Source of the DNA: a virus
Taxonomy: Duplodnaviria; Caudoviricetes
Reading direction: 5' to 3' (one strand)
DNA: 29,828 nt
IMG/VR virus record: IMGVR_UViG_3300042326_000500
Coordinates: 1 to 29,828 of that record
The position numbers were made by a program, and so were the translations under genes. Below, piece by piece: positions 541-29,025 of the stretch. The stretch's first letter is position 1. Each line of letters opens with the position of its first letter. The notes below the pieces were generated by a model. That model did not search any database and was not told where the DNA came from. It was given only the letters and a program-made list of their open reading frames with translations.

Positions 541-1290
541 TCAGGCGTTTTGAGATGCGGCCAAAGCCGCGGCGAATGCCTCCCAGTCGAGGGGCATGTT
601 CTTCAGGCCGAATCGGTTGCCGCCCATGTGCGCGGGGTGCGGCTCGACGTGAAGGATTCGTTTGCCCGTCGTGCGGGCTTTGGTTTCTTTGTTGCCGTAG
701 CCGGCGTCCGACTCGGTGGTGACGATCTGGTAATTGGCCCAGCCGATGACGTCGGCCCACTCCTGCACCAGGGCACCGGCGCGGTCGTGGAGCTTCAGGA
801 CGTACTGGTCGTACCCGTCGTGCAGCGGTGACTCAAAGCGCTTGATCTTGTCGTGCGCGATCAGGATCACGGCCATGTTCCGCTGAGCGCGCAGCTCCTC
901 AAAACCCTGCAGCAGCGTGCGCCACTCCTCGGCCGCGGCGATGTAGCCCTTGCCGTAGCCGGCGGCCTCAATCGTGGCCCACTTGTTCTGTGTACACACG
1001 TGTGTGTGTACAAGCGGCTCCAGCCAGTCCAGCGAGTCGAGGAACACCGTCTGGTAGTCGTGCTCCTCGTTGAGCAGCGTGCTGATGGCCTGGTAGACGT
1101 CGGCCAGGCTGGTGGCCAGGGGGAACGCGGCCGCGTCAACCGCGTCGGCGCCGTCCTCGGTCAGGATGCCGATCGCGCTGGGTGCGCTGGCGGCGAACGT
1201 CGTCTTGCCGATCTTGCCAGGGCCGGCGATAACGATCTTGGGGGCGCGCAGCCTCTTGGTGCGGCGAATGGATGAGAGGTCGAATGCCAT
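541..1290 (-). CDS. AAA_24 family ATPase (Sak4-like ssDNA-annealing/recombination protein)
   Basis: Walker A GPGKIGKT, Walker B VFLDSLDWLE, GYGKGY, ILIAH and EWADVIG motifs; start moved to MAFDLSS (ATG 1290, AAGGA RBS). Confidence 0.85.
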   Translation of the reverse strand: MAFDLSSIRRTKRLRAPKIVIAGPGKIGKTTFAASAPSAIGILTEDGADAVDAAAFPLATSLADVYQAISTLLNEEHDYQTVFLDSLDWLEPLVHTHVCTQNKWATIEAAGYGKGYIAAAEEWRTLLQGFEELRAQRNMAVILIAHDKIKRFESPLHDGYDQYVLKLHDRAGALVQEWADVIGWANYQIVTTESDAGYGNKETKARTTGKRILHVEPHPAHMGGNRFGLKNMPLDWEAFAAALAASQNA

Positions 1291-1304
1291 GTCGTGGGTT
1301 TCCT

Positions 1305-1562
1305 TTAGTCGTTGATCTCGTTGTTGGCCCGCACGCGAGCCCTGATCTGCGCGTCGCGCTGCTCCATCTCCTCCTTGCGGCGGCGCTGCTCCTCGTCCCA
1401 CACCTTGCGGTGGTCGTCGCTGATGCGCGCCTGGTCCCAGAGCCGGTCGTATTGCTTCTTGGACTTGGCCCAGAAGGCGTGGTCGTCGCTGTAGTCGTAC
1501 AGCCAGTCGAAGTTCTGCAGCGACTTGCGGTACTCCTCGAGAGGTTGGAATTCAATGGTCAT
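1305..1562 (-). CDS. small early hypothetical protein (FDWLYDYSDDH motif, C-terminal coiled coil)
   Basis: AGGAG RBS before ATG 1562; phage-like codon usage; co-directional with the operon. Confidence 0.7.
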   Translation of the reverse strand: MTIEFQPLEEYRKSLQNFDWLYDYSDDHAFWAKSKKQYDRLWDQARISDDHRKVWDEEQRRRKEEMEQRDAQIRARVRANNEIND

Positions 1563-1583
1563 GTTGTGCTCCTGTTGATGAGT

Positions 1584-1596
1584 TGCCAGAATCGCA
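1584..1596. promoter_or_regulatory. putative repressor operator (TGCC-AGAAT-CGCA)
   Basis: matches the TGCG-N5-C(G/T)CA pseudo-palindrome also at 2328, 3040 and 3074; intergenic. Confidence 0.45.
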
Positions 1597-1606
1597 TCAC
1601 AGTGGC

Positions 1607-1786
1607 TCAACGACTGAGCCAGTAAAACAGCAAAGAAGCTCCTGCGATGCCAAGGGCGGCCGCAAAGGCGATGTCCGCTGCCCTGGCTATGCGGCGCTCG
1701 CCAGGCGTGCGGTAGATGTAGCTACAGTCGGTGAAGCAGGCCTCGTGGATGGTGCGGGGCGTGCGGAAGTGAGAGGGTCGAAGCAT
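1607..1786 (-). CDS. 59-aa membrane-anchored hypothetical protein (MLRPSHFRTPRTIHEACF...AALGIAGASLLFYWLSR)
   Basis: translated by hand, below the ORF-track cutoff; AGGA RBS; C-terminal hydrophobic helix. Confidence 0.6.
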   Translation of the reverse strand: MLRPSHFRTPRTIHEACFTDCSYIYRTPGERRIARAADIAFAAALGIAGASLLFYWLSR

Positions 1787-1806
1787 GGTGTGGGTCCTGT
1801 CGTGGG

Positions 1807-1923
1807 TCAGAAGGGAGCCGGCGGGTATTTCTTAAAGGGGTCTTGCTTTTGCCGGCGGGGTCGAGGGATCGGTCGGCCCTTCCACGTTGGGAAGGGCCAG
1901 TTCGGTGGCGGCTGGTCAGGCAC
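1807..1923 (-). CDS. 38-aa Pro/basic peptide (VPDQPPPNWPFPTWKGRPIPRPRRQKQDPFKKYPPAPF)
   Basis: GTG start overlaps the upstream stop (GTGCCTGA); fills the operon gap. Confidence 0.45.
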   Translation of the reverse strand: MPDQPPPNWPFPTWKGRPIPRPRRQKQDPFKKYPPAPF

Positions 1924-2269
1924 TGACGGCCTGCACGCGGTCGATGATGTCGCGCATGCTGGCCAGCTCAAGCTCGAGCGCCTCGCGGTGGCTGATCTTG
2001 CGGGCGTTGGGGAACACGCCATCGCTGGCGTCGCGGACGTGCTGCACGGCGGCGTCGATGCTGTCGGGGGTGTAGCAGACCACGCGGCCCGTCACGCGCC
2101 CACCGCGGTACTGTTCGCCATCGGCCACCAGGTACAGGCCAGGCGAGCACTCGATGATCCAGGGCGTGCCGGTGATGATGTTGCGCTTGCGCTCGATGCG
2201 CTCCTCGAGCTCGGCAACCTGGCGGCTGCAGCTGTCGATGATCTGCTGGTACTGGTTCGCGGTGTTCAT
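1916..2269 (-). CDS. early hypothetical protein, first gene of the leftward operon
   Basis: 117-aa ORF; AAGGA RBS; lies downstream of an AT-rich intergenic region with an operator-like site. Confidence 0.7.
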   Translation of the reverse strand: MNTANQYQQIIDSCSRQVAELEERIERKRNIITGTPWIIECSPGLYLVADGEQYRGGRVTGRVVCYTPDSIDAAVQHVRDASDGVFPNARKISHREALELELASMRDIIDRVQAVSA

Positions 2270-2327
2270 GGTTCAGGTTCCTTGGTTCTCATGGCGAAGC
2301 TGCCATGTAGTGAATCCTACTCCACGA

Positions 2328-2340
2328 TGCGACTATCTCA
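2328..2340. promoter_or_regulatory. putative OL-like operator (gaTGCG-ACTAT-CTCAtc)
   Basis: near-perfect inverted repeat GATGCG/CTCATC in the AT-rich gap between the repressor and the early operon. Confidence 0.55.
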
Positions 2341-2388
2341 TCAAATAATCCGACAAAAATAGTGGGATAAGGCTTAAAAGCTACAGGG

Positions 2389-2973: not shown

Positions 2974-3039
2974 AGCTACGCAAAGCGAAAGAGCCGCTTC
3001 TTAATCAACAGGGACTAGATAGTGGCAGTCTCTCCATGT

Positions 3040-3086: not shown

Positions 3087-3099
3087 TCACGGAGTGCAA

Positions 3100-3342: not shown

Positions 3343-3344
3343 CC

Positions 3345-5468: not shown

Positions 5469-5472
5469 GGGC

Positions 5473-5706: not shown

Positions 5707-5712
5707 GGCGGC

Positions 5713-9926: not shown

Positions 9927-10295
9927 ATGGAAAAAGCAAACGAGTTCGTCACCAAGCTGCTGGCCGATCGGTCGGCGGCGCACGTGGCCCACTGGCGCAC
10001 CGAAGAATTTTCGGCGCACGTCGCGCTGGGTGAGTTCTACGACAAGCTGACCGACCTGGTCGACGGGTTCGTCGAGCAGTACCAGGGCTACTACGGCAAG
10101 CGCATGGAGCCCAAGGTCGTGGGCCTTGCGGTGAGCGCTGACGGCATCGACGACCTGCTCGAGCTGTCGTGCGAGTGGATTGAGGCCAACCGCTACAAGG
10201 TCTGCGACCGCGACGACACGTCGCTGCAGAACACGATCGACGAGGTCGTCAAGCTCTACCAGACGACCCTCTACAAGCTGCGCATGCTCAAGTGA
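9927..10295 (+). CDS. Dps/ferritin-like four-helix protein (DUF5856-type)
   Basis: HVAHW...H.ALGEFY...D..VE.YQG and terminal TLYKL resemble the Dps ferroxidase signature; GAGG RBS. Confidence 0.75.
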   Translation: MEKANEFVTKLLADRSAAHVAHWRTEEFSAHVALGEFYDKLTDLVDGFVEQYQGYYGKRMEPKVVGLAVSADGIDDLLELSCEWIEANRYKVCDRDDTSLQNTIDEVVKLYQTTLYKLRMLK

Positions 10296-11691: not shown

Positions 11692-11873
11692 TCGTCCAGG
11701 TCAATCTTGAGCTGTTTCGCGGCATCGAGCAGCTCGGTGCCGAGCTTGCGTTCTAGGTGCGGGTACATGTCACCCGTGTCAACCATCAGCGACGCAGCCT
11801 CGAGCAGGGCAGCCCAGGTTTCCCTTGGCGCCCGCACGACGCGCGTGCCTACGACGATGATGACGTCATCCAT
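11670..11873 (-). CDS. 67-aa antisense protein; candidate immunity/antitoxin or moron
   Basis: AGGAG RBS 6 nt before ATG 11873; its 3' end overlaps that of the 10303 gene; the only credible minus-strand gene in the late region. Confidence 0.6.
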   Translation of the reverse strand: MDDVIIVVGTRVVRAPRETWAALLEAASLMVDTGDMYPHLERKLGTELLDAAKQLKIDLDDQNSSSS

Positions 11874-11900
11874 GGCCATCTCCTTTTCTGCATATCGTTG

Positions 11901-11909
11901 AGAATACCA
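11901..11909 (-). promoter_or_regulatory. extended -10 promoter (TGgTATTCT) for the antisense gene
   Basis: the minus strand reads tgTGGTATTCTcaac about 16 nt upstream of the RBS, in an AT-rich gap. Confidence 0.5.
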
Positions 11910-11913
11910 CAAC

Positions 11914-12240
11914 ATGACTAGACGCCGCTGGATTCAGGACCGCATCACGGGCGAATTGATCGAGGTCACGCCCGACTATCAGCCCGAGCTGCGCACCGAC
12001 TCTGGCGCGCTGTGGGGCGATCGCAGCTACGACGGGCTGCGCGCCACTGACGGCACCGATATCAGCTCGCGGACTAAGCACCGCGACTACATGAAGGCCA
12101 ACGGCCTGGCCACGGCCGACGACTTCAAGGAAACCTGGGCCAAGTCCCAGCAACAGCGTGACCACTACCGACAGCACGGTGGCACGTTCTCACGACGCGA
12201 CGTAGAGCGCGCGATTCAGCAACTCCAAAACAGGCGATAA
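11914..12240 (+). CDS. conserved hypothetical head-module protein
   Basis: DGTDISSRTKHRDYMKANGL pattern; lies just before the scaffold gene. Confidence 0.75.
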   Translation: MTRRRWIQDRITGELIEVTPDYQPELRTDSGALWGDRSYDGLRATDGTDISSRTKHRDYMKANGLATADDFKETWAKSQQQRDHYRQHGGTFSRRDVERAIQQLQNRR

Positions 12241-12243
12241 CCC

Positions 12244-13380
12244 ATGAACGGACCCACGACACTCCGCGACGAGATCGAAGCAGCGATCGAAGAAACAGAG
12301 GCGCCTGCGCAAGCGGCAGCGCCGGCACCGGAACCTGCAGCACCAGCTGAGGCTGCACCGGCTGCAGAACCTGTTGCCGAATCTGCTGCCGAATCTGCAG
12401 AACCTGCGCAGAACCTGGATGCGATGGCAGAGGGCGAAAAGCCCGCTGATGCCCAAGACCTTGCTCAACAGCAGCGAGATGAAAACGGCCGATTCAAGGC
12501 GAAGGAGGAGGGCATCCAGCCCGGCCCCAAGTCAGGACCGCGGCAAGCTGGGGAGCGTGCGCCGGCATCCTGGCGTCCTGATGTAAGGGAGCACTGGGGC
12601 CAGCTGCCCGAGCCGGTGCGCTCTGAGATCCAGCGCCGCGAGGTCGAGGTGCAGCGCACGCTGCAGGAGTCGGCCGAGGCCCGCAAGGCCTACGACGCGG
12701 TGATGCGCACGGTGGCGCCTTACGAGGCGTTCATCCGCGCCGAGGGCTCCAACCCGATCCAGGCGATCGACAACCTGATGGCCACGGCGGCCAAGCTGCG
12801 CACGGGCACCGCGCCCGAGCTGGCCACGATGGTGGCCGGCATCGTCAACCAGTTCGGCATCGGCCGGTTTGGCAACGGATTCATTCAGGCCCTAGACGCC
12901 GCGCTTGCTGGGCAGTCGCCGGTGGTTGACCCGCAGCAGGCCGCGATGGAGCAGGTGCTCAACCAGCGCCTGGCGCCGGTGCAGCAGATGCTGACGCAGT
13001 TTCAGCAGGCGCAGCAGATTCAGCAGGAGCGTGTCGCCCAGGCGGCCCAGTCGGAGGTCGAGCAGTTTCTGGACCGCGCTGAGTTCGGCAATGACGTCCG
13101 CGAGGACATGGCCGACATCATGGAGACGGCCGCCCGCCGCGGTCAGAACATCAGCCTGTCCGACGCCTACAAGAAGGCCTGCCTGATGAACGACCGCGTG
13201 CTGAGCGTGCTCAGGGCGCGCAAGCAGGCCAAGAGCGCCCAGACGCAGACCCAGGCTGCGCAGCGGGCCAGGTCGGCCGCGGTGAGCGTTTCCGGCTCGG
13301 CGCCGGTGGGCGCCCTGCAGCAACCCAGCACTGACGTTCGGTCGGCCATCGAGGCGGCCATTATGCAAAGCGCACGGTGA
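12244..13380 (+). CDS. capsid scaffolding protein
   Basis: acidic Ala/Pro/Glu-rich N-terminus, RDENGRF motif, APASW motif, coiled coils; directly upstream of the major capsid gene. Confidence 0.75.
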   Translation: MNGPTTLRDEIEAAIEETEAPAQAAAPAPEPAAPAEAAPAAEPVAESAAESAEPAQNLDAMAEGEKPADAQDLAQQQRDENGRFKAKEEGIQPGPKSGPRQAGERAPASWRPDVREHWGQLPEPVRSEIQRREVEVQRTLQESAEARKAYDAVMRTVAPYEAFIRAEGSNPIQAIDNLMATAAKLRTGTAPELATMVAGIVNQFGIGRFGNGFIQALDAALAGQSPVVDPQQAAMEQVLNQRLAPVQQMLTQFQQAQQIQQERVAQAAQSEVEQFLDRAEFGNDVREDMADIMETAARRGQNISLSDAYKKACLMNDRVLSVLRARKQAKSAQTQTQAAQRARSAAVSVSGSAPVGALQQPSTDVRSAIEAAIMQSAR

Positions 13381-13388
13381 TGGATAAT
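13353..13388 (+). promoter_or_regulatory. putative late promoter for the capsid transcript
   Basis: GGCGGCCATTATGCAAAGCGC..GGTGA..GATAAT parallels 5672-5706. Confidence 0.45.
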
Positions 13389-13389
13389 T

Positions 13390-13563
13390 CACACCACAGG
13401 GAGGGGCAACCTTCCCTTGGTGTGCCCAAGCACCCCAGCCACCGCAGCTCCTGGGAGACGCCAAGCGTCCCACCCACGACATAGACGGACTGAGATCGGT
13501 TCGCGTCGGCGCATCTGAAATGGTGGGCGAAAGCCCGTAACAACCCAACTCAGATGAGGAGTT
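13390..13563 (+). ncRNA. structured 5' leader RNA of the major capsid gene
   Basis: 15-bp GCAA-capped hairpin 13390-13424; hairpins 13452-13472 and 13484-13507; CATCTGA/TCAGATG stem enclosing GGGC-GAAA-GCCC and abutting the AGGAG RBS. Confidence 0.6.
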
Positions 13564-13567
13564 AATC

Positions 13568-14542
13568 ATGGCATTCCCAAATGTCTCAGACATCGTCGCA
13601 ACGACGATTCAAAACCGTTCGCGTCAGATCGCGGACAACGTCACCAAGAACAACGCCATCCTGGCCAAGCTGAACCAGCGCGGCAACGTCAAGACGATCT
13701 CTGGCGGTAACGTGATCTTTGAAGAACTGTCTTTCGCTGAGAACGCGAACGGCGGCTTCTACTCGGGTTACGACCTGCTGCCCGTGGCCGCTCAGGACGT
13801 GATCAGCGCTGCTGAGTTCCAGATCAAGCAGTACGCCGTTCCTGTGGTGATGTCTGGCCTCGAGATGCTGCAGAACAGCGGCAAGGAACAGTTCATTGAC
13901 CTGCTGGAAGGCCGCCTGAACGTGGCCGAGAGCACGATGATGAACGAGCTGTCGCAGTCGATCTACTCCAACGGCACCGGCTCTGGTGGCAAGGAAGTGA
14001 CCGGCCTCGACGCAGCTGTTCCCAGCGATCCCACCACCGGCACCTACGGCGGTATCGATCGTGCCACCTGGACCTTCTGGCGCTCGAAGTTGTACGACTT
14101 CAGCACCGCCACCGGCGGCAACGCCACGGCGGCCAACATCCAGGCAGGCATGAACAACCTGTGGGCCCAGACCACCCGTGGTTCTGACCGTGTCGATCTG
14201 ATCGTCATGGACACGAACTACTGGGCTCTGTACATGGCCAGCCTGCAGGCTCAGCAGCGTTTCACGTCGCCGGAAACCGGCAACCTCGGCTTCCCGTCCA
14301 TCAAGTTCATGGACGCTGACGTGGTGCTGGACGGCGGTATCGGTGGCTTCTGCCCGGCGAACACGGCGTTCTTCCTGAACACCAAGTTCATCAAGTGGCG
14401 CCCCCACAAGGACCGCAACATGGTCCCGCTGTCGCCGAATCGCCGCTACGCGATCAACCAGGACGCCGAGGTGCAAATCCTCGCCTGGGCCGGCAACCTG
14501 ACCACCTCCGGCGCCCAGTTCCAGGGCCGCATGCAGAACTAA
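13568..14542 (+). CDS. major capsid protein
   Basis: 324 aa after the scaffold gene; strong RBS, highly biased codons and a downstream terminator; SDIVATTIQNRS...TYGGIDRATWTFWR pattern. Confidence 0.9.
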   Translation: MAFPNVSDIVATTIQNRSRQIADNVTKNNAILAKLNQRGNVKTISGGNVIFEELSFAENANGGFYSGYDLLPVAAQDVISAAEFQIKQYAVPVVMSGLEMLQNSGKEQFIDLLEGRLNVAESTMMNELSQSIYSNGTGSGGKEVTGLDAAVPSDPTTGTYGGIDRATWTFWRSKLYDFSTATGGNATAANIQAGMNNLWAQTTRGSDRVDLIVMDTNYWALYMASLQAQQRFTSPETGNLGFPSIKFMDADVVLDGGIGGFCPANTAFFLNTKFIKWRPHKDRNMVPLSPNRRYAINQDAEVQILAWAGNLTTSGAQFQGRMQN

Positions 14543-14569
14543 TTGGTGGGCCTGTCGTGGGTCACCCTT

Positions 14570-14608
14570 CCCAAGGGGCTGGGGTGACCCACACCCCTTG
14601 GGTTTTTT
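14570..14608 (+). terminator. intrinsic terminator with an overlapping alternative (antiterminator) stem
   Basis: CCCAAGGGG/CCCCTTGGG stem capped by TGGG-GTGA-CCCA and followed by T6; competing stem 14557-14567/14582-14592. Confidence 0.8.
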
Positions 14609-14626
14609 GCCATTCAGGAGATCAAC

Positions 14627-15079
14627 ATGCCGGCAACCGCAACCCCGACCGCGTCGCCTTCTGGCGGCCAGGTCAATCCCGGATCCACCTTCACGCTGGC
14701 ATGTGCCACTGAAGGCGCGACCATTCGCTACACCTACGGGACCGCTCCGGCCAACACCGGCTGGACGACCTACTCGGGCGCGGTCACGCTGCCCGCAACC
14801 TCTGGCCAATCCGTCGTCGTCCGCGCCTACGCCACAAGCGAAGGTAACGATCCGTCGGCCGTGGCTGAGTTCACGTTCTACACCATCGGATATGGCGCTG
14901 CAGTGAGCGCCAACGCCAAGACGGTGCTCGATACCAACGCATCGCAGGGCCTCGGCGCTGTGTGCGAAGGCATCAACCCGACTGGCAACGACGAGGCCAG
15001 CATCAGCGGCCAGCGCATCGGTGCGTCTGGTACGACGACTGACCTCAAGGTCGAGACTGGCGACGGTCCCGGCGCTTAA
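14627..15079 (+). CDS. probable capsid decoration protein with an Fn3-associated/CHB_HEX_C-like Ig domain
   Basis: ATPTASPSGG...LACATEGATIRYT...YSGAVTL...VRAYA...S.VAEFTF pattern; AGGAG RBS; follows the capsid gene. Confidence 0.7.
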   Translation: MPATATPTASPSGGQVNPGSTFTLACATEGATIRYTYGTAPANTGWTTYSGAVTLPATSGQSVVVRAYATSEGNDPSAVAEFTFYTIGYGAAVSANAKTVLDTNASQGLGAVCEGINPTGNDEASISGQRIGASGTTTDLKVETGDGPGA

Positions 15080-15102
15080 TCCACCACTAGAAAGAAAAAA
15101 CC

Positions 15103-15708
15103 ATGCAACCCACGACACCCACTGTATTTGACGACATCCCACTTCCGCAGCCCAACGAGTCCCGCTACGCGATGGACTCGAAGCTGTACATCGAGTTTTA
15201 TCGCAAGCCCGTGATGCACCACGCCAAGAGCAAGGATGCAGGGCGCGCGATTTACGACGAGGTGGACTACATCCGCATCCACACGCCCGGTGACAAGAGC
15301 AGCGTCATCGACAAGCCAATCACGGCGCTGGACATCCAGCGCTTTTCCGATCGGTACAACAAGTGGAAGGCGGGCCAGGCTGAGGCCGTCACTGGCACGC
15401 CGCTGACGGCGCTGCCTGGCATCACGCCGTCGAAGGCTGAGGAATACAAGTTCTTCAAGATCGTCACCATCGAGCAGCTCGCCGACGCGCCCGACAACCT
15501 CGGGCAGAAGTTCATGTCCTTCCAGCAGGACAAGACCCGCGCCAAGGCGTTCATGGAGGTCGCGGCCAACAATGCCCCGATCGAGAAAATGAACGAGGAG
15601 CTGCAGAAGCGTGACCAGGTGATTGAGGACATGCAGGCTCAGCTCGAGGCGCTCAAGGCGCAGATCAAGCCCAAGCGACAGGTCGCAGCCACGGCCGACG
15701 CTGAGTAA
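15103..15708 (+). CDS. conserved hypothetical morphogenesis-module protein (possible HhH-like motif, C-terminal coiled coil)
   Basis: GTPLTALPGIT...IVTIEQLA; strong codon bias. Confidence 0.75.
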   Translation: MQPTTPTVFDDIPLPQPNESRYAMDSKLYIEFYRKPVMHHAKSKDAGRAIYDEVDYIRIHTPGDKSSVIDKPITALDIQRFSDRYNKWKAGQAEAVTGTPLTALPGITPSKAEEYKFFKIVTIEQLADAPDNLGQKFMSFQQDKTRAKAFMEVAANNAPIEKMNEELQKRDQVIEDMQAQLEALKAQIKPKRQVAATADAE

Positions 15709-15722
15709 ACCGGAGGACGGGG

Positions 15723-16472
15723 ATGGCCTTCCAGATCGTCAACGAATCGACCCTCTCGGCCATCGTGCAAAACGTGGCCGGGATGGTGGCCTACCCCGTC
15801 CCGACTGACCCTGCGGGCTCTGAGGACCCCGCGGTTCAGCAGATGGTTCAGGCGGCCAACATGGCCGGCAATGAGCTGCTGTCGATGTTTGAGTGGCAGG
15901 AGCTGATCAAGAACTATCAGATCCCCATCCAGTCGGACAGCAACGGCCAGAAGGAAAAGGGCTTCGCCCTGCCGCAGGACCTGTACCGCTGGATCGACCA
16001 GACCAACTGGAACGCGACGACGCAGTTCCCCTCGCTGGGCCCGGTGTCGGCGCAAATGTGGCAGCAGCTGCTGATCCGCACGACGCTGCCGACGCTGTCG
16101 TTCTACTGGCAGGTCCGCGACAACAAGATCTACGTGCTGGCGCCGCCCAACTCGCCGCAGACGATGAACGTGTTCTACGTCTCGGCCGGATGGGTGCGCG
16201 ATCAGAACGACCCCGACCTGTACAAAAACCGGATGACGCAGAACGGCGACGTGTCGCTGCTCGACGCCACGGTGATGACCCTGTACACGCGCGTGAAGTG
16301 GCTCGAGATGAAGGGCCTAGACAGCAGCGCCGCGATGCGCGACTTCAACATCGCGTTTGACAACCGCAAGAATTCCGAGAAGGGCGCGCCGGTGCTGACC
16401 ATGGCGCGCGACTTCCGCTTCCCGTACATCCAGCCGCTGATCAATACGCCCGACACGGGCATGGGGGCATAA
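15723..16472 (+). CDS. head-tail adaptor (tail tubular protein A-like)
   Basis: size and position; F.W.EL and LPQDLYRWIDQTNW pattern; GGAGG RBS. Confidence 0.7.
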   Translation: MAFQIVNESTLSAIVQNVAGMVAYPVPTDPAGSEDPAVQQMVQAANMAGNELLSMFEWQELIKNYQIPIQSDSNGQKEKGFALPQDLYRWIDQTNWNATTQFPSLGPVSAQMWQQLLIRTTLPTLSFYWQVRDNKIYVLAPPNSPQTMNVFYVSAGWVRDQNDPDLYKNRMTQNGDVSLLDATVMTLYTRVKWLEMKGLDSSAAMRDFNIAFDNRKNSEKGAPVLTMARDFRFPYIQPLINTPDTGMGA

Positions 16473-18089: not shown

Positions 18090-19075
18090 TGGCAACGACA
18101 CCTGCAGTGCCAACCAACGCGCTGATTGACGCGCTGCGCGGATCGTCAGCGCCTGGGCTGACCAATCCAGGGATTAAGTTCTACGACAACCCGCAGAACG
18201 GAATGGCTTTGGCGCCGTTTGTGCGCCAAAAGTTTGCCGCTCACACCCCTGTCGGGATGGTGCCGGCTGCGCCGCGTCCAGTGATCCCGCCGCCGCTCGC
18301 GCCCGCGCCGGCACCAGCTCCGGCGCCTGCACCCATGGTGCCACCGCCGCCACGGCCTTCGCCCAAGTTGGATGCACTTGTAATGCTTGATGACGCGGTG
18401 ATTTCGGACGTTGATGTGCCGCCTGTGCCGCCGGCAGATCCACCGCCCCCGCCGCCGCCTCCTGAGCCGCCGCCTGAGCCGCCGCCAGAGGTGCCGCCTG
18501 ATCTGCCGCCGGATTTGCCGCCTGACCTGCCACCGGACCCGCCGCCGCCACCTCCTCCTCCGCGTCCGACGCCGCCAACTGTTACGAATAGCGGCACCAA
18601 AACCGACGCGAGCCATTGGGGCGAGGGTGGTGAAAACCTAGTTGCGGGCGACGGCGCCGGCACGTTTGGCGTGCTGCTGTCCGACATGGACGACGACACG
18701 CTGGGCGACGTTGATGACGTCAACGGCTCGGACCTTGCCAGCGACAACTACACGTTTGGCGTCCTCATGGACGACGCTAACGACGCTGGATCGGGGGACG
18801 ACGTCAACGGCGCAGACTTGGCCAGTGACTTGTACAGCTTCGGCGTTCTGATGGACGACGTTGACGATCCCGGCTCATCCGACGACGTCAACGGCTCGGA
18901 CTTGCAGAGCGACCAATACAGCTTTGGCGTGCTGATGTCTGACCAAGACCCCGTGCGCGATGAGATCGTTGACATTAATGCGCTGATCGACGAGCTCGAC
19001 ATGCTCGCGTTTGCCAAGGACGCCGAGCGCAAGTTGCAGGAGAAGTTCGGCGACACGGAGTACGCATACCTATGA
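18089..19075 (+). CDS. Pro-rich, Asp-rich repeat protein of unknown function
   Basis: start and stop overlap both neighbours; polyproline tracts followed by 28-30-aa acidic repeats. Confidence 0.65.
   Translation: MATTPAVPTNALIDALRGSSAPGLTNPGIKFYDNPQNGMALAPFVRQKFAAHTPVGMVPAAPRPVIPPPLAPAPAPAPAPAPMVPPPPRPSPKLDALVMLDDAVISDVDVPPVPPADPPPPPPPPEPPPEPPPEVPPDLPPDLPPDLPPDPPPPPPPPRPTPPTVTNSGTKTDASHWGEGGENLVAGDGAGTFGVLLSDMDDDTLGDVDDVNGSDLASDNYTFGVLMDDANDAGSGDDVNGADLASDLYSFGVLMDDVDDPGSSDDVNGSDLQSDQYSFGVLMSDQDPVRDEIVDINALIDELDMLAFAKDAERKLQEKFGDTEYAYL
18661..18945 (+). repeat. tandem 84-90-nt coding repeats ((T/S)FGVL(M/L)xD...DDVNG(S/A)DL(A/Q)SDxY, about 3.3 copies)
   Basis: unit starts at 18661, 18751, 18835 and 18919. 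Confidence 0.85.
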
Positions 19076-19512
19076 AGCTGGTGACCGACCAACCTGGCGA
19101 GTATCCGGTCGTCTGGGAGTGGATGAACCGGCGCACGCGGCTGCCATGGAGCAGCGACCTGCGCACGATCGCGTCCATGCGAGATGACGGGACGATCGCC
19201 AGCGCGGTCGGTTTCAACGCCTGGACGCTGTCGGCCTGCTGGATTCACGTGGCGTTTGACGGTCCGCATGGGCTGAACAGGCACCTGTGGCGCGCAGCCT
19301 TCGAGTATCCATTCGTAAAATGCGGCATGGAGGCCATCTACGGCTTGACGCCCAAGAACCTCGACGACGCGCTGCGGATGAATGACAAGTTGGGATTCCG
19401 CAGGATCGCTGAGACGGTTGACTGCGTAATGTTTGAAATGCGACACGACGAGTGCCGCTGGATCAAGGAGAACGCTCATGGGCGGCAAGGGATCAGCACC
19501 TCCACCACCTGA
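19072..19512 (+). CDS. GNAT-fold acetyltransferase-like virion-assembly protein
   Basis: AFEYPF...GLTPKNLDDALRMNDKLGF resembles GNAT motif B; lies before the ejection proteins. Confidence 0.7.
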   Translation: MKLVTDQPGEYPVVWEWMNRRTRLPWSSDLRTIASMRDDGTIASAVGFNAWTLSACWIHVAFDGPHGLNRHLWRAAFEYPFVKCGMEAIYGLTPKNLDDALRMNDKLGFRRIAETVDCVMFEMRHDECRWIKENAHGRQGISTSTT

Positions 19513-21635: not shown

Positions 21636-22760
21636 ATGGATCCGCTAACTTTTTCCGAGGACGTTGAGCGCCGCAAGCGGGCCATGCTGCCGATGGCCAT
21701 GAGCTCGCTGGTGTCGCCTGGCGGTACGCTGTCCAACAGCGTGCAGCCTGGTCAGGCGCTGCCCATGAGCATGCGCCAGCGGCTGGGCAAGGTGTACAGC
21801 GAGCTCGACAAGATCGAAGGCCAGGAGGTCGACACGTCAGCGCTGCAGGCCTTCGCCAAGCAGCAGGGCCAGGCGGGCGAGCAGGCCATGCTCAACGCGT
21901 TGGCGGCTCAGTACGCCGGCGAGAACTTCCAGCCTGTGCAGGCGCAGTTCCTAAAGCGCGCGGCGGCTGCGTCTGAACCGATGAAGCTCGGCGCCGGCAT
22001 GCTCACGCCCGATGGCCAGTACATCAAGGATCCGTTCGCGTCGCGTGATGCGCGACGCGCATCACTTGAGCGCCAGGCCACCACCATGCAGGGCGCGATT
22101 GATCGGCAGGAGCGGGAGGAGCGCGATCGTCAGGACAGGCTGCGCCAGCAGCAGATCTCCAACGATTTTCGAGAGCAAGGCCTAGCACTGCAAGGCGTGA
22201 TCGCCGGCAACACCAACGAGAACCGCAACTTCACTCGGGCGACCACGCTGCGCAACGAGTACGGCAAGAAGGCCGACAAGATCGGCGAGGGCGTGCGTCA
22301 CGCTGAAACAGTGATGACGCTGTTGACCGATCCCGACATTAAACAGAACCCGACAAAGCAGGTCGCGCTCGTGTTTGCGTTCGGCAAGATGCTGGACCCC
22401 GAGTCGGTGGTGCGCGAGAGCGAATACGCGCTGATTGCCAACGCCCGCGGCGTGTTCCAGGGGCTCATCCAAAAGCCGGATCAGTTGATGACCGGCGCGC
22501 GGCTGACGCCTGAGCAGTTGAGCAGCATGCAAGCGATTGCCGGGCAGCTTTTTGCAGGCGCCGATCAGCGCCGAAACGACTTGGCGGCTGCCTACCGCAG
22601 CATGGCCGAGCGCAACGGCCTGCGCGTGGAGGATGTGCTGCCGATGATGCCGCGTGTTGGCGCCGGCGGCGCTGGTGGTGACGACAAGCTATCGCCCGCC
22701 GAGCGTGCAGAGCTGCGCCGGCTGCGCGAGAGGTTCGGCCAAGGTGCTGGAGGTCAATGA
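21636..22760 (+). CDS. internal virion/ejection protein (putative)
   Basis: helical Q/A-rich; ALVFAFGKMLDPESVVRESE motif typical of podovirus ejection proteins. Confidence 0.65.
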   Translation: MDPLTFSEDVERRKRAMLPMAMSSLVSPGGTLSNSVQPGQALPMSMRQRLGKVYSELDKIEGQEVDTSALQAFAKQQGQAGEQAMLNALAAQYAGENFQPVQAQFLKRAAAASEPMKLGAGMLTPDGQYIKDPFASRDARRASLERQATTMQGAIDRQEREERDRQDRLRQQQISNDFREQGLALQGVIAGNTNENRNFTRATTLRNEYGKKADKIGEGVRHAETVMTLLTDPDIKQNPTKQVALVFAFGKMLDPESVVRESEYALIANARGVFQGLIQKPDQLMTGARLTPEQLSSMQAIAGQLFAGADQRRNDLAAAYRSMAERNGLRVEDVLPMMPRVGAGGAGGDDKLSPAERAELRRLRERFGQGAGGQ

Positions 22761-24556
22761 TGTCTGAGCGTCAAGAACTGGAGCAGCTGCGGCGCCTGGC
22801 CGAGCTCGAGCGCAAGGCTCGCGGGCCTGTGACGGTCGCGCCTGAGCCGGTCTTTGACCCGACGGCCGGCATGTCTACCGGCGACAAGATCCTGGCCAAC
22901 ATTGGCGCTGGCATGGCCGACCTCGGCACAGGCGTCAAGAGTCTCTACACCGACATGTTCGGCAGCGACGCTGAAAAGCGCGCCATGGAGCAGGAAGTCG
23001 CCCGCAAGCGCGAGATCGACAAGCGGCTAGCCGGCACCGTCACCGGCGGCGGCTTGCTGCAGGTGGCTGGTGGAGTCGTGCCGACGCTGGCCATTCCCGG
23101 CATCCCGTTGGCCGCTGGCGCTGGTCGTCTGGCCACGACTGCCGCAGGTGCCGCAACGGGCGCTGGGTACGGTGCCATCGTGCCTCGCGGTGAAGGTGAA
23201 AACCGCACCAACAGCATGATCTTGGGTGGCGCCCTGGGCGGTGCCCTGCCGCTGTCTCTGGCCGCGCTCAAGGGCGCCGCAACGCCCTTCCGCGGTCAGT
23301 CGCGTGCGGCGCAGGAAGTCACCGAGGCCATCGTGCCGCAGGGCGCGACCAGTCCTGAGCGGCGCGCGGTGCTCGAGCAGGCTATGCGGCAAGTGCGCCA
23401 ACAGGCTCCGCAGGCCTCGCAGGCGCCTCGCGGCAGCATTCCCTTGTCGGTGTCGGCCAGGCTGGGCAACCCCGAGCTTGCGCGCCTTGAGGCCGGCAGC
23501 CGGGCCCGCAGCGGTGCCAACTGGTACGACTTTGACCAAAATCAGGCGAGGGCAGTGGCCGATGAGGTCATGGCGGCCACGCGCGGTGCTGACGATCTTG
23601 CAGCACGGCGCGCACTGCGATCGAACAACCGCAGCGTTTTGTACAACCAGGCAATGGGCTCCATCAACGAGCCCGCGTTTGCGCGTGATCTGACATCGTT
23701 CCGGGCCAACCTTGATCAGGCCGCTAGGTCGGCTGAGGCCAGCAACCCGGCCGTGCGCAACATGGTGCAGCAGCTGGCTGACGAGATTGACAGACTCGGC
23801 CCCGACTTCACGCCGGAGCACTTGGCAACAATTCGCGCCAACCTTGCCAAAAAGGCGCCGCTGGTGCCGACCAATGCATACGAGGCCGTGCCGCGGGAGT
23901 CTCCCGCCACCATGAGCGTGCTGCGTGAGGTCGACAACATCCTAAACAGCGCCACCGGCGGCCGTTGGCAGGATGTCGTGGGCAGCTATGCGCGCGACTC
24001 CAATCAAGTGCGGGCATCACAGGCTGCCGGAAAAGTGCGCGAGGCCTTTATTGATCCGGCCACGGGGCGCGTGCGAGGTGTGTCGGCAGACGCAGCTGGC
24101 GACGTCCCCAAGATCACCGAGGCACGCCTCGGGCGCGCGCTTGACGCAGCCCGCGGCCCGCGCAAGGACCTGGTGCTAGACCCGACCGCCAACACGCGGC
24201 TGGAGTCCGTTCTTGATGCCCTGCGCCGGCAGAACATCGTGCAGGGCGTGAAGCGCTCGGCCACGGCGGGCGGCGGCAGTAATACGGCCAGCGACCAGTT
24301 CGCGGCCGGCACCGCGCGCGCCATGGGTGACGTTGCCCTAGACGTCGTTGGCGGCCCGGCGGCGACCGTCGGGCGCGGCTTGCTAAGCGGCCTCCGCAGC
24401 GCGGTTGACGCCCGCAAGGACCGCGCGCTGGCCGAGGCGCTGCAGAACGAACAGGCGTTCATCCAGATGTTGGAAAATCAGGCTGCCAAGGAAGGCAGCG
24501 TGCTTGATCGAAGTGAGGTCGCGCGACTTCTGCGCTATCTCCGAGGCAATCAGTAA
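22757..24556 (+). CDS. large internal virion/ejection protein (putative)
   Basis: Gly/Ala-rich hydrophobic segments (GAATGAGYG, GGALGGALP) and GSNTA motif; precedes the tail fibre gene. Confidence 0.65.
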   Translation: MMSERQELEQLRRLAELERKARGPVTVAPEPVFDPTAGMSTGDKILANIGAGMADLGTGVKSLYTDMFGSDAEKRAMEQEVARKREIDKRLAGTVTGGGLLQVAGGVVPTLAIPGIPLAAGAGRLATTAAGAATGAGYGAIVPRGEGENRTNSMILGGALGGALPLSLAALKGAATPFRGQSRAAQEVTEAIVPQGATSPERRAVLEQAMRQVRQQAPQASQAPRGSIPLSVSARLGNPELARLEAGSRARSGANWYDFDQNQARAVADEVMAATRGADDLAARRALRSNNRSVLYNQAMGSINEPAFARDLTSFRANLDQAARSAEASNPAVRNMVQQLADEIDRLGPDFTPEHLATIRANLAKKAPLVPTNAYEAVPRESPATMSVLREVDNILNSATGGRWQDVVGSYARDSNQVRASQAAGKVREAFIDPATGRVRGVSADAAGDVPKITEARLGRALDAARGPRKDLVLDPTANTRLESVLDALRRQNIVQGVKRSATAGGGSNTASDQFAAGTARAMGDVALDVVGGPAATVGRGLLSGLRSAVDARKDRALAEALQNEQAFIQMLENQAAKEGSVLDRSEVARLLRYLRGNQ

Positions 24557-24569
24557 GAGGAGCGACGAC

Positions 24570-27500
24570 ATGCCCCGCAACCTTTCCGGTGTTTACACCC
24601 TTCCCGCTGGTAACCCTGTGGTGCCTGGCACCACAATCGACGCGGCCTGGGCCAACTCGACGCTGGAGGACATCTCCAACGAGTTGACCAACTCGCTGTC
24701 GCGCACGGGCGCTGGCGGCATGCTGGCGCCGTTCCGCATTGCTGACGGCAACGTCACCGGGCCGGGCCTGTCGTTCCTGAACGAAACCAACACCGGCTAC
24801 TACCGCGTCGGGGCGGGATCGACCGCGTTCTCAATCCTGGGCGTCAATACGCTGCAGATGAACACCACGTCGGTGACTGTCCCTGCAGCGCGCACCCTAA
24901 ATGCGCAGGGCAACGCGCTGGTGGCCGGTACGCTTGGCGTCACGGGCGCCACGCTTATGGCCTCGACGCTTGGCGTGACTGGTGTGATTACGGCACTGGG
25001 TGGAGTTCTTGGCAACATCACGGCAGCCAGCGGCACCTCGACGTTCAACGACCTAGTGATCAACGGCTCGCTGGACATGGTGGCCGGCAGCTCGGCGACC
25101 ATCACCGGGCTGTCGACCCCGACCAACGCTAGCGACGCGGCCAACAAGGGCTACGTCGACACGCAGGACGCGCTGAAGCTCAACCTCGCCGGTGGCACCA
25201 TGAGCGGCAACCTCGCCATGGGCAACAACCTGGTGACGGGGCTCGGCACGCCGGCATCTGGCGGCGACGCGACCAACAAGACCTACGTCGATGGCCAGAT
25301 CGCCACGCGTCTAGCGCTGGCCGGCGGGACGATGTCGGGTGCCATTGCGATGGGCACCAACAAGATCACGGGCCTTGGCACCCCCACCGCCGACGCTGAC
25401 GCGGCCACCAAGGCCTACGTCGACAGCGTGGCGCAGGGCCTGGACGTGAAGGGCAGCGTGCGCGCTGCGACCACCGGCAACATCACGCTGTCGGGCACGC
25501 AGACGATCGACGGCGTGGCCGTGATCGCCGGCGACCGGGTGCTGGTCAAGGACCAGTCGACGGCCGCCAACAACGGCATCTACGTGGCCGCTGCTGGTTC
25601 CTGGTCGCGTGCGGCTGACGCCGACACCTGGGCTGAGCTGGTCGGCGCGTTCGTGTTCGTCGAGGACGGCACCGTCAACGACAACAGCGGCTGGGTCTGC
25701 ACGGTGGCGCCTGGTGGCACGCTGGGCGTGACCGCGGTGACGTTTGAGCAGTTCTCTGGCGCGGGGCAGATCACTGCCGGCGCCGGTATGGTCAAGGTCG
25801 GCAACACGCTCAATGTGCAGTCGGCGTCGAGCTCTCGCATCGTGGTGGGTGCCGACGAGATCGACCTGGCGACCACGGGCGTGAGTGCCGGCACCTATCG
25901 GTCGGTCGGTGTCGACATCTATGGCCGCGTGACAACGGGCACCAACCCGACGACGCTGGCCGGCTACGGCATCACCGACGCCTACACCTCAACGGCCACC
26001 GACACGCTGCTTAACGGCAAGCTGTCGCTGACCGGCGGCACGATGTCGGGCCCGATCGCCATGGGCACGAGCAAGATCACTGGCCTGGGTGATCCGACCA
26101 ACGCCCAGGATGCTGCCACCAAGAACTATACCGACACCGGCCTGAACGCCAAGCTGTCGCTGTCGGGTGGCACGATGACCGGCGCCCTGGCCATGGGCAC
26201 CAACCGCATCACCGGCATGGGTGACCCGGTCAATGCGCAGGACGGGGCGACCAAGAACTACATCGACACGATCTTCGGCTCGACGGCGTCGGCTGCAGCG
26301 TCTGCCGCAGCTGCTGCGTCTAGTGCTTCGTCGGCGAGCTCTAGTGCGTCGAGTGCGTCGACCAGCGCGTCCAATGCGTCGACGTCGGCTAGCACTGCCT
26401 CGACGGCCCTGTTCAACTTCCGCGCTCAGTACCTGGGCCCGCTCGCGTCTGACCCGACGGTCGACGGCAACGGCAACCCGGTGAGCACGGGCGACCTGTA
26501 CTTCAACACGACGGCCAGCGAGACGCGCGTCTACAACGGCAGCGCCTGGGTCGCGGCCTATGTGCCGACTGCTGGCTACGCGCTGCTGGCCTCGGCCAAC
26601 GTGTTCACCGCGAACCAGACCATCACGGCCAACACCTCAAACGACGCGCTGAAAATCACGCAGACGGGCTCGGGCAACGCGCTGTACATCGAGGATGTGG
26701 CGGCTGACGCCACGCCGTTTGTGGTGTCGTCCACCGGCGTGCTGGGCATCGGCACCACGACGCCTGACAACGTGACGTCGGCTGGTATCGCGCTAGTGTC
26801 CAACAGCGGGTTCTATCCGCAGCTCATCCAGCGCAACACCGCCAACGACGCCAACGCGTCGTACTTAGGCCTTGAGAAGATTCGCGGCAGTTCGGCCGTC
26901 CAGAGCAACGACATCCTGGGCAACATCGTGTTCCGCGGCTACGACGGCACGCAGTTCCTGCAGGGCGCGGCGATCTGGGCCAGGATCAGCGCCACGCCAG
27001 GCGCCAATGACATGCCGACCGATCTGCTGTTTGGCACGACGCCTGATGGCGGCGCGGGCATCAGCGAGCGCATGAACTTGGACAAAAACGGCAACCTCGG
27101 TCTGGGGGTGACGCCAAGTGCTTGGCAATCTGGTTTGCGTGCTTTTCAAGTTGGCGCAACAGCATCAATTTACTCAAACGGCTCAAACACCACTTTTCAC
27201 GGCCTAAACTTCTTCACAGATTCTGGTGGGACAAACAGATATTTAATTTCAAACTTTGCATCTGCCTACGGTCAGGTTTCTGGCGCTCATAACTGGTTTA
27301 CCGCCCCCTCCGGCACCGCAGGAAACGCCATCAGTTTCACGCAGGCGATGACACTGGAGGCTTCTGGTCGATTGCTTGTTGGTGTTACTTCTGGAAGTTA
27401 CGCACTTGATGTCGGTGATGTTTCCGGCGGAAATATGTTCCGCTTCGCTCGTTCAGGGGTTGAACTAAGTTCTTACATCAGTAGCGGTACTCCGTTCTTT

Positions 27501-28649
27501 GGAACGACCTCAAATACAGAACTTGCGCTGATGACCAACAGCACAAGGCGTGCAACCATAGACACCTCCGGCAACCTCGGTCTGGGGGTGACGCCGAGTG
27601 CTTGGGGAAGCAGTTACAGGGCTTTGCAAGTTGGCTCAGCATCTTCGCTGTATGGGATCGGCGCCAACACGATTGTTGGAAACAACGCCTACAACGACGG
27701 GACAAATTCTCGTTACATCACAAGTTCTCAAGCCACTTTGTACGCCCAAAACTCATCAGGGCAACACATTTGGTACACCGCAGCCTCCGGCACCGCAGGA
27801 AACGCCATCAGTTTCACGCAGGCGATGACGCTGGATGCGAGTGGGAATTTGGGCGTCAATGCCACATCAATTGCCGGTCTTGGCACCAACATCACGACCA
27901 TTGAAATAAAAGGAAAGGCCACTGATCGCACTGGTGGAGTGCGCTTGCGCAGTTCTGATAACTCGGTTGACTTCAGCTATTACTCAGCATCAGGCGTGGG
28001 GTCGCTTGGTTCAGATTCAAATCACCCGCTTGCGTTTGTTACTTACGCCACCGAACGCGCACGGATTACGTCGGGTGGTCTGCTTCTCATCGGCAAAACC
28101 TCCGATGTAAACGGCAGGCTTCAGGTGCGCGGTTCTTATTCGTCCGGTATCCTTGTTGATGGGGGCACCGATGATGGCAACTGGGGTGGCGGCGTTGGCT
28201 TTTACTCCGCCACAAGCAACGGCCAATACGGACGTGTCCATGCGAGCACGGGCGGGCTGTTTGCTACAGGTGGCACGACAGGGGGAGTCGTTCTTTCGCC
28301 CGGCGCTACGTCGTGGGCTTCAGCGTCCGACGTCCGCCTAAAGAACATTATTGAGCCAATCGCAAGCCCTTTAGACAAGGTGATGCGACTTGAGTCGTTC
28401 ATCTTTTCGTGGAAGTCTGACGCCTCGAATAAGCGTTGTGTGGGCTTGTCGGCCCAGTCTGTTGACGAAGTTTTGCCTGAGGCTGTCGTCAAAACACGCA
28501 ATCAAGAGAACCGCGAAGATGAAACCGAATATCTCGGAGTCAAGTACACCGAGTTGGTGCCTTTGCTGACCGCAGCAATCCAAGAACTTAAGGCACAGAA
28601 CGACGACCTCCGCGCCCGTGTGGCGCAACTTGAAGCCAAAGGAGCATGA
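24570..28649 (+). CDS. tail fibre/spike with a C-terminal peptidase S74 intramolecular chaperone
   Basis: start moved to MPRNLSGVYTLPAGNPVV (GAGGAG RBS); GGTMSG...DAAxKxYVD repeats; Ser/Ala-rich stretch; SDVRLKNI...GLSAQ...YTELVPLL..AIQEL. Confidence 0.9.
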   Translation: MPRNLSGVYTLPAGNPVVPGTTIDAAWANSTLEDISNELTNSLSRTGAGGMLAPFRIADGNVTGPGLSFLNETNTGYYRVGAGSTAFSILGVNTLQMNTTSVTVPAARTLNAQGNALVAGTLGVTGATLMASTLGVTGVITALGGVLGNITAASGTSTFNDLVINGSLDMVAGSSATITGLSTPTNASDAANKGYVDTQDALKLNLAGGTMSGNLAMGNNLVTGLGTPASGGDATNKTYVDGQIATRLALAGGTMSGAIAMGTNKITGLGTPTADADAATKAYVDSVAQGLDVKGSVRAATTGNITLSGTQTIDGVAVIAGDRVLVKDQSTAANNGIYVAAAGSWSRAADADTWAELVGAFVFVEDGTVNDNSGWVCTVAPGGTLGVTAVTFEQFSGAGQITAGAGMVKVGNTLNVQSASSSRIVVGADEIDLATTGVSAGTYRSVGVDIYGRVTTGTNPTTLAGYGITDAYTSTATDTLLNGKLSLTGGTMSGPIAMGTSKITGLGDPTNAQDAATKNYTDTGLNAKLSLSGGTMTGALAMGTNRITGMGDPVNAQDGATKNYIDTIFGSTASAAASAAAAASSASSASSSASSASTSASNASTSASTASTALFNFRAQYLGPLASDPTVDGNGNPVSTGDLYFNTTASETRVYNGSAWVAAYVPTAGYALLASANVFTANQTITANTSNDALKITQTGSGNALYIEDVAADATPFVVSSTGVLGIGTTTPDNVTSAGIALVSNSGFYPQLIQRNTANDANASYLGLEKIRGSSAVQSNDILGNIVFRGYDGTQFLQGAAIWARISATPGANDMPTDLLFGTTPDGGAGISERMNLDKNGNLGLGVTPSAWQSGLRAFQVGATASIYSNGSNTTFHGLNFFTDSGGTNRYLISNFASAYGQVSGAHNWFTAPSGTAGNAISFTQAMTLEASGRLLVGVTSGSYALDVGDVSGGNMFRFARSGVELSSYISSGTPFFGTTSNTELALMTNSTRRATIDTSGNLGLGVTPSAWGSSYRALQVGSASSLYGIGANTIVGNNAYNDGTNSRYITSSQATLYAQNSSGQHIWYTAASGTAGNAISFTQAMTLDASGNLGVNATSIAGLGTNITTIEIKGKATDRTGGVRLRSSDNSVDFSYYSASGVGSLGSDSNHPLAFVTYATERARITSGGLLLIGKTSDVNGRLQVRGSYSSGILVDGGTDDGNWGGGVGFYSATSNGQYGRVHASTGGLFATGGTTGGVVLSPGATSWASASDVRLKNIIEPIASPLDKVMRLESFIFSWKSDASNKRCVGLSAQSVDEVLPEAVVKTRNQENREDETEYLGVKYTELVPLLTAAIQELKAQNDDLRARVAQLEAKGA
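25098..26270 (+). repeat. 44-aa fibre shaft repeats (LAGGTMSG.IAMGT.KITGLG.PT...DAATK.YVD)
   Basis: GGTM units at 25191, 25323, 26034 and 26166 (132-nt spacing within each pair), plus a partial copy near 25100. Confidence 0.85.
27089..27829 (+). repeat. two pairs of near-identical direct repeats bounding diverged fibre modules
   Basis: 27089-27125 vs 27569-27605 (36/37 nt identical); 27307-27352 vs 27784-27829 (46/46). Confidence 0.9.
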
Positions 28650-28957
28650 GCATGGACATCATCATCAACACCCTGGAGCGCAACACCGCCGACGGCGCCG
28701 TGATCACGGTGCACTGGTCGACCGCCAAGACGCAGGGCGAGCACACCGCCAGCCAGTACGGAACCGAGTCGTTCGAGGCTGATCCGGCAGCGCCTGGGTT
28801 CGTGCCTTACGAGCAGCTGACGAAGGAGATCGTCACCGGCTGGCTGACCGCGCGCTGGGGGGCTGAGGGCCTGGCCGCCAAGGAGGCTGCGCTGGACGCG
28901 CAGCTGGCTCAGATGGCCAACCCGCCGGTGGTGATCGGCCTGCCCTGGGCGGCATAA
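28646..28957 (+). CDS. small tail-fibre-associated protein
   Basis: ATGA overlap with the fibre gene; V.TVHW...FVPYEQLT...V.GW...LPW pattern common downstream of fibre genes. Confidence 0.7.
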   Translation: MSMDIIINTLERNTADGAVITVHWSTAKTQGEHTASQYGTESFEADPAAPGFVPYEQLTKEIVTGWLTARWGAEGLAAKEAALDAQLAQMANPPVVIGLPWAA

Positions 28958-29025
28958 TTCACGGCTGCAGCGGTGCGAATACAGCACCGCGCTGCGAATC
29001 CCACGACAACCCACTGGAGATCCAA

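Follow-up and report, generated by a model that had tools for sequence, protein, structure and literature searches.

The DNA analysed here, IMG/VR record IMGVR_UViG_3300042326_000500 (Caudoviricetes), was studied over its whole length of 29,828 nt, hereafter called the window. The 66 nt that follow the stop codon of its major capsid gene probably act as a trans-acting RNA that blocks the translation of several genes of the phage, as comparisons among relatives and predicted folds suggest. In these comparisons, a short seed in the element is complementary to several translation-initiation regions (TIRs, −40 to +25), the complementary sites sit at gene starts, the sites covary with the seed, and three competing helices are predicted around it. 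An earlier note on this DNA had suggested that an RNA from the capsid 3′ untranslated region (UTR) pairs with TIRs, and enrichment, TIR position and covariation all argue for that suggestion. The coordinates are collected in Table 1.

Table 1. The capsid 3′ element, its predicted target sites and the remaining motif copies in the window (SD, Shine–Dalgarno sequence)
Feature	Positions	Strand	Basis or remark
Major capsid protein gene, parent of the 3′ element	13568–14542	+	phrog_9953
Candidate regulatory RNA, from the capsid stop codon (14540–14542) to the U-tract	14543–14608	+	conserved behind the major capsid gene
Seed UGUCGUGGGU; its core UGUCGU forms the P1 hairpin loop	14553–14562	+	folds; three seed states in relatives
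P1, seed-presenting hairpin; compatible with the terminator, competes with stem A	14545–14566	+	predicted folds
Stem A, GUGGGUCACCC paired with GGGUGACCCAC; predicted antiterminator masking the 3′ half of the seed	14557–14592	+	two-sided changes
Stem B, intrinsic terminator, 14570–14578 with 14594–14602 plus U6	14570–14608	+	hairpin and U-tract
Strongest predicted target: leader and SD of the 59-aa early gene (1607–1786)	1790–1809	−	duplex with 14546–14564
Site between SD and AUG of the Sak4-like annealase gene (541–1290; phrog_124, AAA_24)	1290–1299	−	
Codons 3–6 (Pro-Thr-Thr) of the putative scaffold gene (12244–13380)	12252–12261	+	Thr/Pro covariation
Codons 2–5 of gene 15103–15708 (phrog_20268)	15108–15117	+	covariation
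Site just 5′ of the SD of the 56-aa gene (29026–29196), which overlaps the holin start	29000–29008	+	
Copy inside the structured capsid leader, in the window's close clade only	13472–13481	+	outside the 12 best in cofolding
Copy antisense to gene 22757–24556	23974–23982	−	off the mRNA strand

The motif from which the proposal started, CCCACGACA, occurs eight times in the window, at 12253, 13473, 15109 and 29000 on the plus strand and at 1298, 1806, 14561 and 23982 on the minus strand, and exact search verified all of the previously listed coordinates and strands; six of the eight copies carry a leading A. The count against a Markov background that had been proposed as a check gives an expectation of 0.29–0.70 copies for orders 0 to 5 (0.40 at order 3), which agrees with the previous estimate of less than one chance copy, and the motif ranks first among 9-mers and 10-mers for over-representation. 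On the count alone the family-wise margin is thin, since none of 60 simulated genomes reached p = 1.06e-8 and the nearest came to 1.07e-8. Position at TIRs clearly adds far more: CCCACGAC is found in 5 of the 33 TIRs of the window, always in mRNA sense, compared with a maximum of 3 in 3000 dinucleotide shuffles of these TIRs, and no 8-mer of any sort hit five TIRs in the same shuffles. Six mRNA-sense copies had been placed at gene starts, and five of them do lie there, whereas some 87 nt separate the 13472 copy from the capsid ATG downstream. At this position relatives mostly have CCTACGAC whatever their seed state, with no covariation, and the copy falls outside the 12 strongest binders in cofolding; the idea of a regulated gene-start site in the capsid leader thus had to be given up, and the copy is probably not a conserved target. 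The copy at 23974 is probably due to chance.

Covariation was followed in relatives gathered by capsid protein, the best 80 matches being kept from each scan. Out of 276 loci screened, 265 had the full capsid gene and its 3′ region, and 176 of these were unique. The seed has three states, GUCGUGGG, GUGGUGGG and GUGGUAGG, and 141 of the 176 unique loci match these cores, 29 of the rows having no readable scaffold start. The scaffold gene begins with CCC-ACG-AC in all 45 readable C-seed rows, with CC-ACC-AC in 53 of 58 G-seed rows (the other five have no site) and with CCT-ACC-AC in 8 of 9 rows of the third, A-seed state (GTGGTAGG). At the gene starting at 15103 (gene 15103), the start matches in 50/50 C-seed rows where it is readable and in 7/8 A-seed rows, and of the G-seed rows 27 match exactly, 37 differ by G-U-compatible changes and 9 have no site; three rows of this gene that seemed discordant were a labelling artefact, their starts containing both overlapping 7-mers. 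The switching bases at both genes are synonymous third-codon positions. When 321 four-fold columns from the capsid, scaffold and 15103 genes, all with the same evolutionary history, were compared, the third position of the scaffold motif Thr followed the seed in 96/96 rows and ranked first, and the motif Thr codon of gene 15103 ranked second, with a normalized mutual information of 1.00 and 0.53, respectively, vs. a 95th percentile of 0.20.

The same switch is seen genome-wide in a set of 33 genomes (the window, 31 relatives and Stenotrophomonas phage BUCT555, with our own gene calls). The 594 TIRs of the 14 C-seed genomes contain 55 copies of CCCACGAC and 4 of CCCACCAC, the 676 TIRs of the 16 G-seed genomes contain 0 and 25, and the 153 TIRs of the three seedless genomes contain 0 and 1. 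The antisense 8-mers are absent from the TIRs of all 33 genomes, and gene bodies hold 8 sites in 368 kb, vs. 55 in 594 TIRs. Non-coding early leaders switch with the seed too, and among rarer seeds, outside these counts, AGGUGGUGAG was found by eye to face CUCACCACCU ahead of the 53-aa gene of genome G039. The C/G position of the seed is unpaired in all three intramolecular helices (P1, A and B), and therefore its only partner lies in trans. In L031, the element and the scaffold site are both lost. Positional conservation and covariation in relatives, which had been named as checks of the proposal, thus speak in its favour.

The strongest of the predicted targets is the 59-aa early gene. A 14-nt complement had been described here, and CCTGTCGTGGGTCA is indeed found at both 1796–1809 and 14551–14564, but the pairing is really longer, comprising 19 bp with one bulged A between 14546–14564 and 1809–1790. 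This TIR ranks first of 33 by duplex energy and again in ensemble cofolding (−23.4 kcal/mol). When accessibility is taken into account in cofolding, the first five places among the 33 all go to the motif TIRs, each of which is predicted to bind the terminated form of the element more tightly than the stem-A form. Across 27 genomes, four of which are nearly identical, the phage's own seed region finds its best partner in an early-cluster TIR in 18, and in 21 such a TIR is among the top three. The partner gene differs by phage (the 59-aa gene, Sak4 or a 127-aa DUF7173 gene), the duplex has 11–16 unbroken bp and about 20 bp with bulges and G-U pairs, often across the SD, and the flanks of the early site match each phage's own seed flanks.

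The other sites are shorter. The scaffold gene has no family match and owes its name to its position only, and a homolog search for gene 15103 returned no function. The site ahead of the 56-aa gene is present in all 11 C-seed genomes that have this gene family, and a site is found in 2 of 17 integrase starts. The target start regions are predicted to fold poorly by themselves. As separate observations, a CATAAT and a hairpin precede the 56-aa gene (28950–29000, +), and the end of this gene overlaps a tandem ATG-ATG holin start (29171–29196, +), where translational coupling to lysis is possible.

The element itself is conserved in structure. A pattern search independent of the capsid gene yielded 97 viral loci and one genome locus, and a capsid C-terminus directly precedes the element in 97 of these 98, the remaining one being too short to judge; no host-chromosome ancestor is seen, because the sole genome-contig match also sits behind a capsid gene. 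Rfam gave no match for the element and nothing relevant up to E 5. Hairpin P1 has a core loop of 5–6 nt and a stem of at least 4 bp around the core in 51 of 55 distinct seed regions, a length that G-U pairs make easy to reach, and the core is looped in the minimum free energy structure of the terminated form in 36 of the 55. In a 30-row alignment, both sides have changed in 4 of the 9 pairs of stem A (20 cells), a level that none of 500 shuffles equalled. For stem B, 86 of 87 distinct sequences have a hairpin whose end is no more than 2 nt from the U-tract. Of these 87, a set that excludes three loci lacking a U-tract, 79 have an energy of −10 kcal/mol or lower for fold A as well as for fold B, the medians of the two being −25.3 and −24.8. 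The two helices are read as alternatives because the 5′ arm of B lies inside A and the linkers, in our own estimate, look too short for a full pseudoknot. Terminator and antiterminator helices that are mutually exclusive and both conserved, in predicted folds and pair counts, are a feature of transcription attenuators, and the earlier description of the antisense copy at 14553–14562 as part of a switchable hairpin agrees with these three conserved competing helices. BUCT555 and more distant capsid relatives are without the element. A clade of relatives (L046, L064, L068–L072, L076, L078–L080) has the seed GCCGTGGTGGCT and a different capsid leader and keeps the three helices.

Based on these features, the following mechanism is proposed. 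Some capsid transcripts would stop at terminator B, which makes them surplus capsid message; these would fold P1 and show the seed in its loop, and read-through transcripts would fold stem A and hide it. Because the seed would be masked by stem A in read-through RNA, only the terminated, capsid-surplus product would be active, either as a fragment released by RNase or as the intact mRNA tail. The seed would then pair over the SD or the first five codons of unstructured TIRs and repress initiation as capsid message builds up; since the pairing covers the SD or first codons of poorly folded starts, repression rather than activation is predicted. The long duplex on one gene of the Sak4/SSB cluster would cause a late shut-off of the early recombination cluster, and the 8–10 bp sites on the scaffold gene, gene 15103, the pre-holin 56-aa gene and sometimes the integrase may tune their output relative to capsid.

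Several results weigh against the proposed trans-acting RNA. Repeated independent origins of the C-seed were suggested by the capsid trees, and single-gene fast trees require 4–6 seed changes, but the approximately unbiased (AU) test did not uphold them: in a 31-row concatenated tree a single C-seed clade is not rejected (p-AU 0.51), and sign tests on independent pairs, with 1–3 pairs available, are not significant. The C/G switch may be one evolutionary event, and a cautious count comes to two well-sampled seed changes, each of them matched at several unlinked sites. The within-type permutation values for the early duplexes in the 27 genomes (p = 0.0004 and 0.0002) are inflated because of near-identical rows. 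The early site is missing in 6 of the 27 (G018, G021, G025, G027, G031 and G030, the last a fragment). The Sak4 site is present in the window as had been noted, but it is labile in close relatives, being missing or altered in the three closest full genomes. Locus L075 has an uncompensated seed mismatch, the scaffold site is absent from the GCCGTGGTGGCT clade, where all three helices are retained, and in C-seed phages with C in the 5′ flank of the seed the scaffold mostly has a mismatching A (15 A, 6 G, 3 C). Six sequencing runs had a word share of 5–6%, and the four examined contain only contigs of relatives, which carry no information on RNA ends, strand or level. In L031, the element and the scaffold site are both lost.

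The main rival explanation reverses the direction of action: the target mRNAs would bind the nascent seed, block stem A and trigger termination before the tail genes, i.e., an RNA-triggered attenuation such as that of P4 CI RNA on seqA/seqC. The duplex does cover GUGGGUCA, the 5′ arm of stem A, the layout of P1, A and B is attenuator-like and energy-balanced, and the covariation results are compatible with either direction. However, the sites are confined to TIRs at the densities given above, as expected for a trans-acting RNA because its targets would be what is regulated, and the site in gene 15103 lies downstream of the very terminator that it would have to trigger; the reversed direction is thus considered unlikely. 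The earlier note had offered as its own alternative a site for a regulator protein, and base pairing by the element fits the data better. A DNA- or RNA-binding protein of the phage or its host could recognize CCCAC(G/C)AC, with the capsid 3′ copy as a reversed site, as one specificity change could switch all sites and a single C/G event would be compatible with it; moreover, several early sites come after promoter-like A/T stretches, and the phage encodes repressor and Cro-like proteins. However, the motif is non-palindromic, every TIR copy reads in mRNA sense, the one conserved antisense copy lies in a hairpin loop, with G-U pairs valid on the plus strand, the complementarity reaches 11–20 bp with bulges and phage-specific flanks, and the third seed state alters a different position, all of which makes a protein site quite improbable.

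Pairing in cis inside the long late mRNA, in which the scaffold and 15103 starts would pair with the capsid 3′ UTR and the early sites would be secondary, fits worse still. In keeping with such folding, the two sites that vary least lie on the strand of the element, one 2.3 kb upstream of it and the other 0.55 kb downstream, but the strongest duplex is with an early gene encoded on the other strand, part of the seed is predicted to be masked in read-through RNA and the pre-holin site is 14 kb away, leaving this explanation very little weight. The least probable explanation is that a C/A-rich enhancing or unstructured stretch and conserved Pro-Thr-Thr starts covary through shared ancestry. The TIRs are C/A-rich and the C-seed phages may be one clade, but TIR shuffles never give five sites, concordance is much lower in the other 319 four-fold columns, which share that history, and the non-coding early leaders switch as well. 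The trans-acting RNA thus remains the preferred explanation, the protein site, cis folding and compositional bias all fitting less well.

The genome, of which the window is a 29.8-kb fragment, is podophage-like. A leftward early cluster (117-aa, 59-aa and 85-aa genes, the Sak4-like annealase and an SSB-like gene) is followed by the repressor and Cro-like genes, primase-helicase, terminase, portal and putative scaffold, and then by the major capsid protein, tail genes, holin and endolysin. The capsid protein is 73% identical to that of BUCT555 and 64% to that of Myxococcus phage Mx8 (background on the lineage can be found, in part, in PMC10386132). The family is taken to be temperate because complete relatives encode a tyrosine integrase, which often adjoins a tRNA end. 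As for the host, a capsid match at 97% sits in a contig of a Polaromonas metagenome-assembled genome, and the tRNA-His of one relative matches Cellvibrio and Betaproteobacteria genomes, neither of which amounts to a host assignment. The hfq gene was found in all three candidate-host genomes checked, which bears on availability only. Promoter scans gave no hits, and 11700–15800 in particular has no sigma-70 consensus promoter. One relative, L113 (G027), is a mosaic whose capsid is 94% but whose Sak4 is 44% identical to the window's, and it has the C seed and late sites and no early site. Other genes seen in passing are the first gene past the terminator (14627–15079, +; 150 aa, with an N-terminal Fn3-like/CHB_HEX_C domain), whose position is taken by a shorter gene in many relatives, a DUF5856/phrog_858 gene directly 3′ of the portal gene (9927–10295, +) and an acyl-CoA N-acyltransferase-like gene inside the tail module (19072–19512, +).

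The capsid leader (13383–13570, +) is a second conserved structured RNA, with the invariant blocks GTG-GC, CAGCCACC, CCA-C and CGGACTG and a CAUCUG/CAGAUG stem adjoining the SD; a −10-like (C/G)ATAAT lies 5′ of it in many relatives, and it has no match in Rfam. L031, which has lost the 3′ element, retains the leader. In L016, L057, L067 and L073 the apparent end of an inserted reading frame replaces the leader about 200 nt 5′ of the capsid ATG, and the 3′ element is retained. A further observation concerns GTCGTGGGTTC, which occurs in a tRNA-His gene adjoining the integrase (L101, 5834–5909, −; also L081, L084, L088 and L117), and G007 and G016 have two copies. C-type scaffold starts are also complementary to this tRNA-His, because GTCGTGGGTTC is identical to the C-type seed core. 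A tRNA-His link was not upheld as a requirement, as it is found in 5 of 11 integrase-bearing C-seed genomes, four others having other tRNA-like ends and two having none, and the identity is likely a coincidence.

No description of the element turned up in the open-access literature searched or in Rfam. DicF of the Qin prophage is an intra-operonic RNA that arises by early Rho-independent termination and has a short seed; the targets named for it in the part of the source used here are host genes, and its processing and Hfq dependence are proven (PMC9438474). The element is a candidate for a regulator that works like the DicF-type 3′-end small RNAs (sRNAs), here known from sequence alone. As far as these RNAs are described in the sources used, it shares with DicF and the 3′-end class (CpxQ, SroC and SdhX) several trans targets at TIRs, predicted ones in its own case, and with DicF a prophage origin. 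As in that class, it is a 3′ UTR that shares the intrinsic terminator of its parent (97/98; 86/87), at the level of sequence, with a conserved accessible seed complementary to unlinked TIRs. Unlike DicF as described there, it has the capsid gene as its parent and genes of the phage itself as predicted targets, and its seed would be masked in read-through RNA by a conserved alternative stem. IsrK of Gifsy-1 is a phage sRNA with a leaky intrinsic terminator and short and long isoforms that acts in trans on phage mRNA (PMC4825925, in part). As described, IsrK sits at the 5′ end of an operon and activates one downstream target, whereas the element lies at a 3′ end and is a predicted repressor of several unlinked genes.

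According to the part of PMC4825925 used here, the CI RNA of P4 is processed from an untranslated primary transcript and confers immunity by terminating transcription of its target. As far as described, it shares with the element trans pairing, predicted for the latter, at more than one short complementary site and a link to termination. The C4 RNA of P1, also from a phage, likewise has more than one short complementary site for trans pairing and is linked to termination. Membership of this CI/C4 group is not indicated, there being no relevant Rfam match and the element lying 3′ of a coding gene rather than in an untranslated leader. In T7, the leaky terminator T-phi follows the capsid gene, and partial termination sets the capsid-to-tail ratio; to our knowledge, T-phi has no seed, trans targets or alternative stem. 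OOP, aQ and sar are cis-antisense phage RNAs acting on one gene each, PreS targets host dnaN and VpdS acts via Hfq on phage and host mRNA levels (PMC12197685, in part). All five control phage developmental timing by base pairing, as is proposed for the element, and none is described as a capsid 3′-end product in the part of PMC12197685 used here. The element does not belong with the cis-antisense RNAs OOP, sar and aQ, which are encoded at the locus of their target on its opposite strand, its predicted targets being 0.5–14 kb away.

In the sources at hand, known phage regulatory RNAs are thus mostly single-target antisense or host-directed RNAs, and the element is a candidate phage-internal regulon arising from the capsid transcript. 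Its family is widespread and uncultured (97 viral contigs by one strict pattern), the intermolecular RNA–RNA pairing is backed by compensatory changes at synonymous codons, and the competing helices offer a structural explanation for an activity that would be limited to terminated transcripts. The natural C-, G- and A-seed variants are ready-made swap controls, making testable an early-gene shut-off and a balance of structural proteins without a dedicated protein. As a more speculative and rather doubtful extension, the element may be an RNA-only toggle, in which the three-helix attenuator yields a multi-target regulator of early, assembly and lysis genes of the phage and target mRNAs on the nascent seed lock termination. 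If this were true, the ratio of capsid to tail and the timing of the early-to-late switch would both be set by one 66-nt element, whose targets would have rewritten synonymous codons to keep pace with it.

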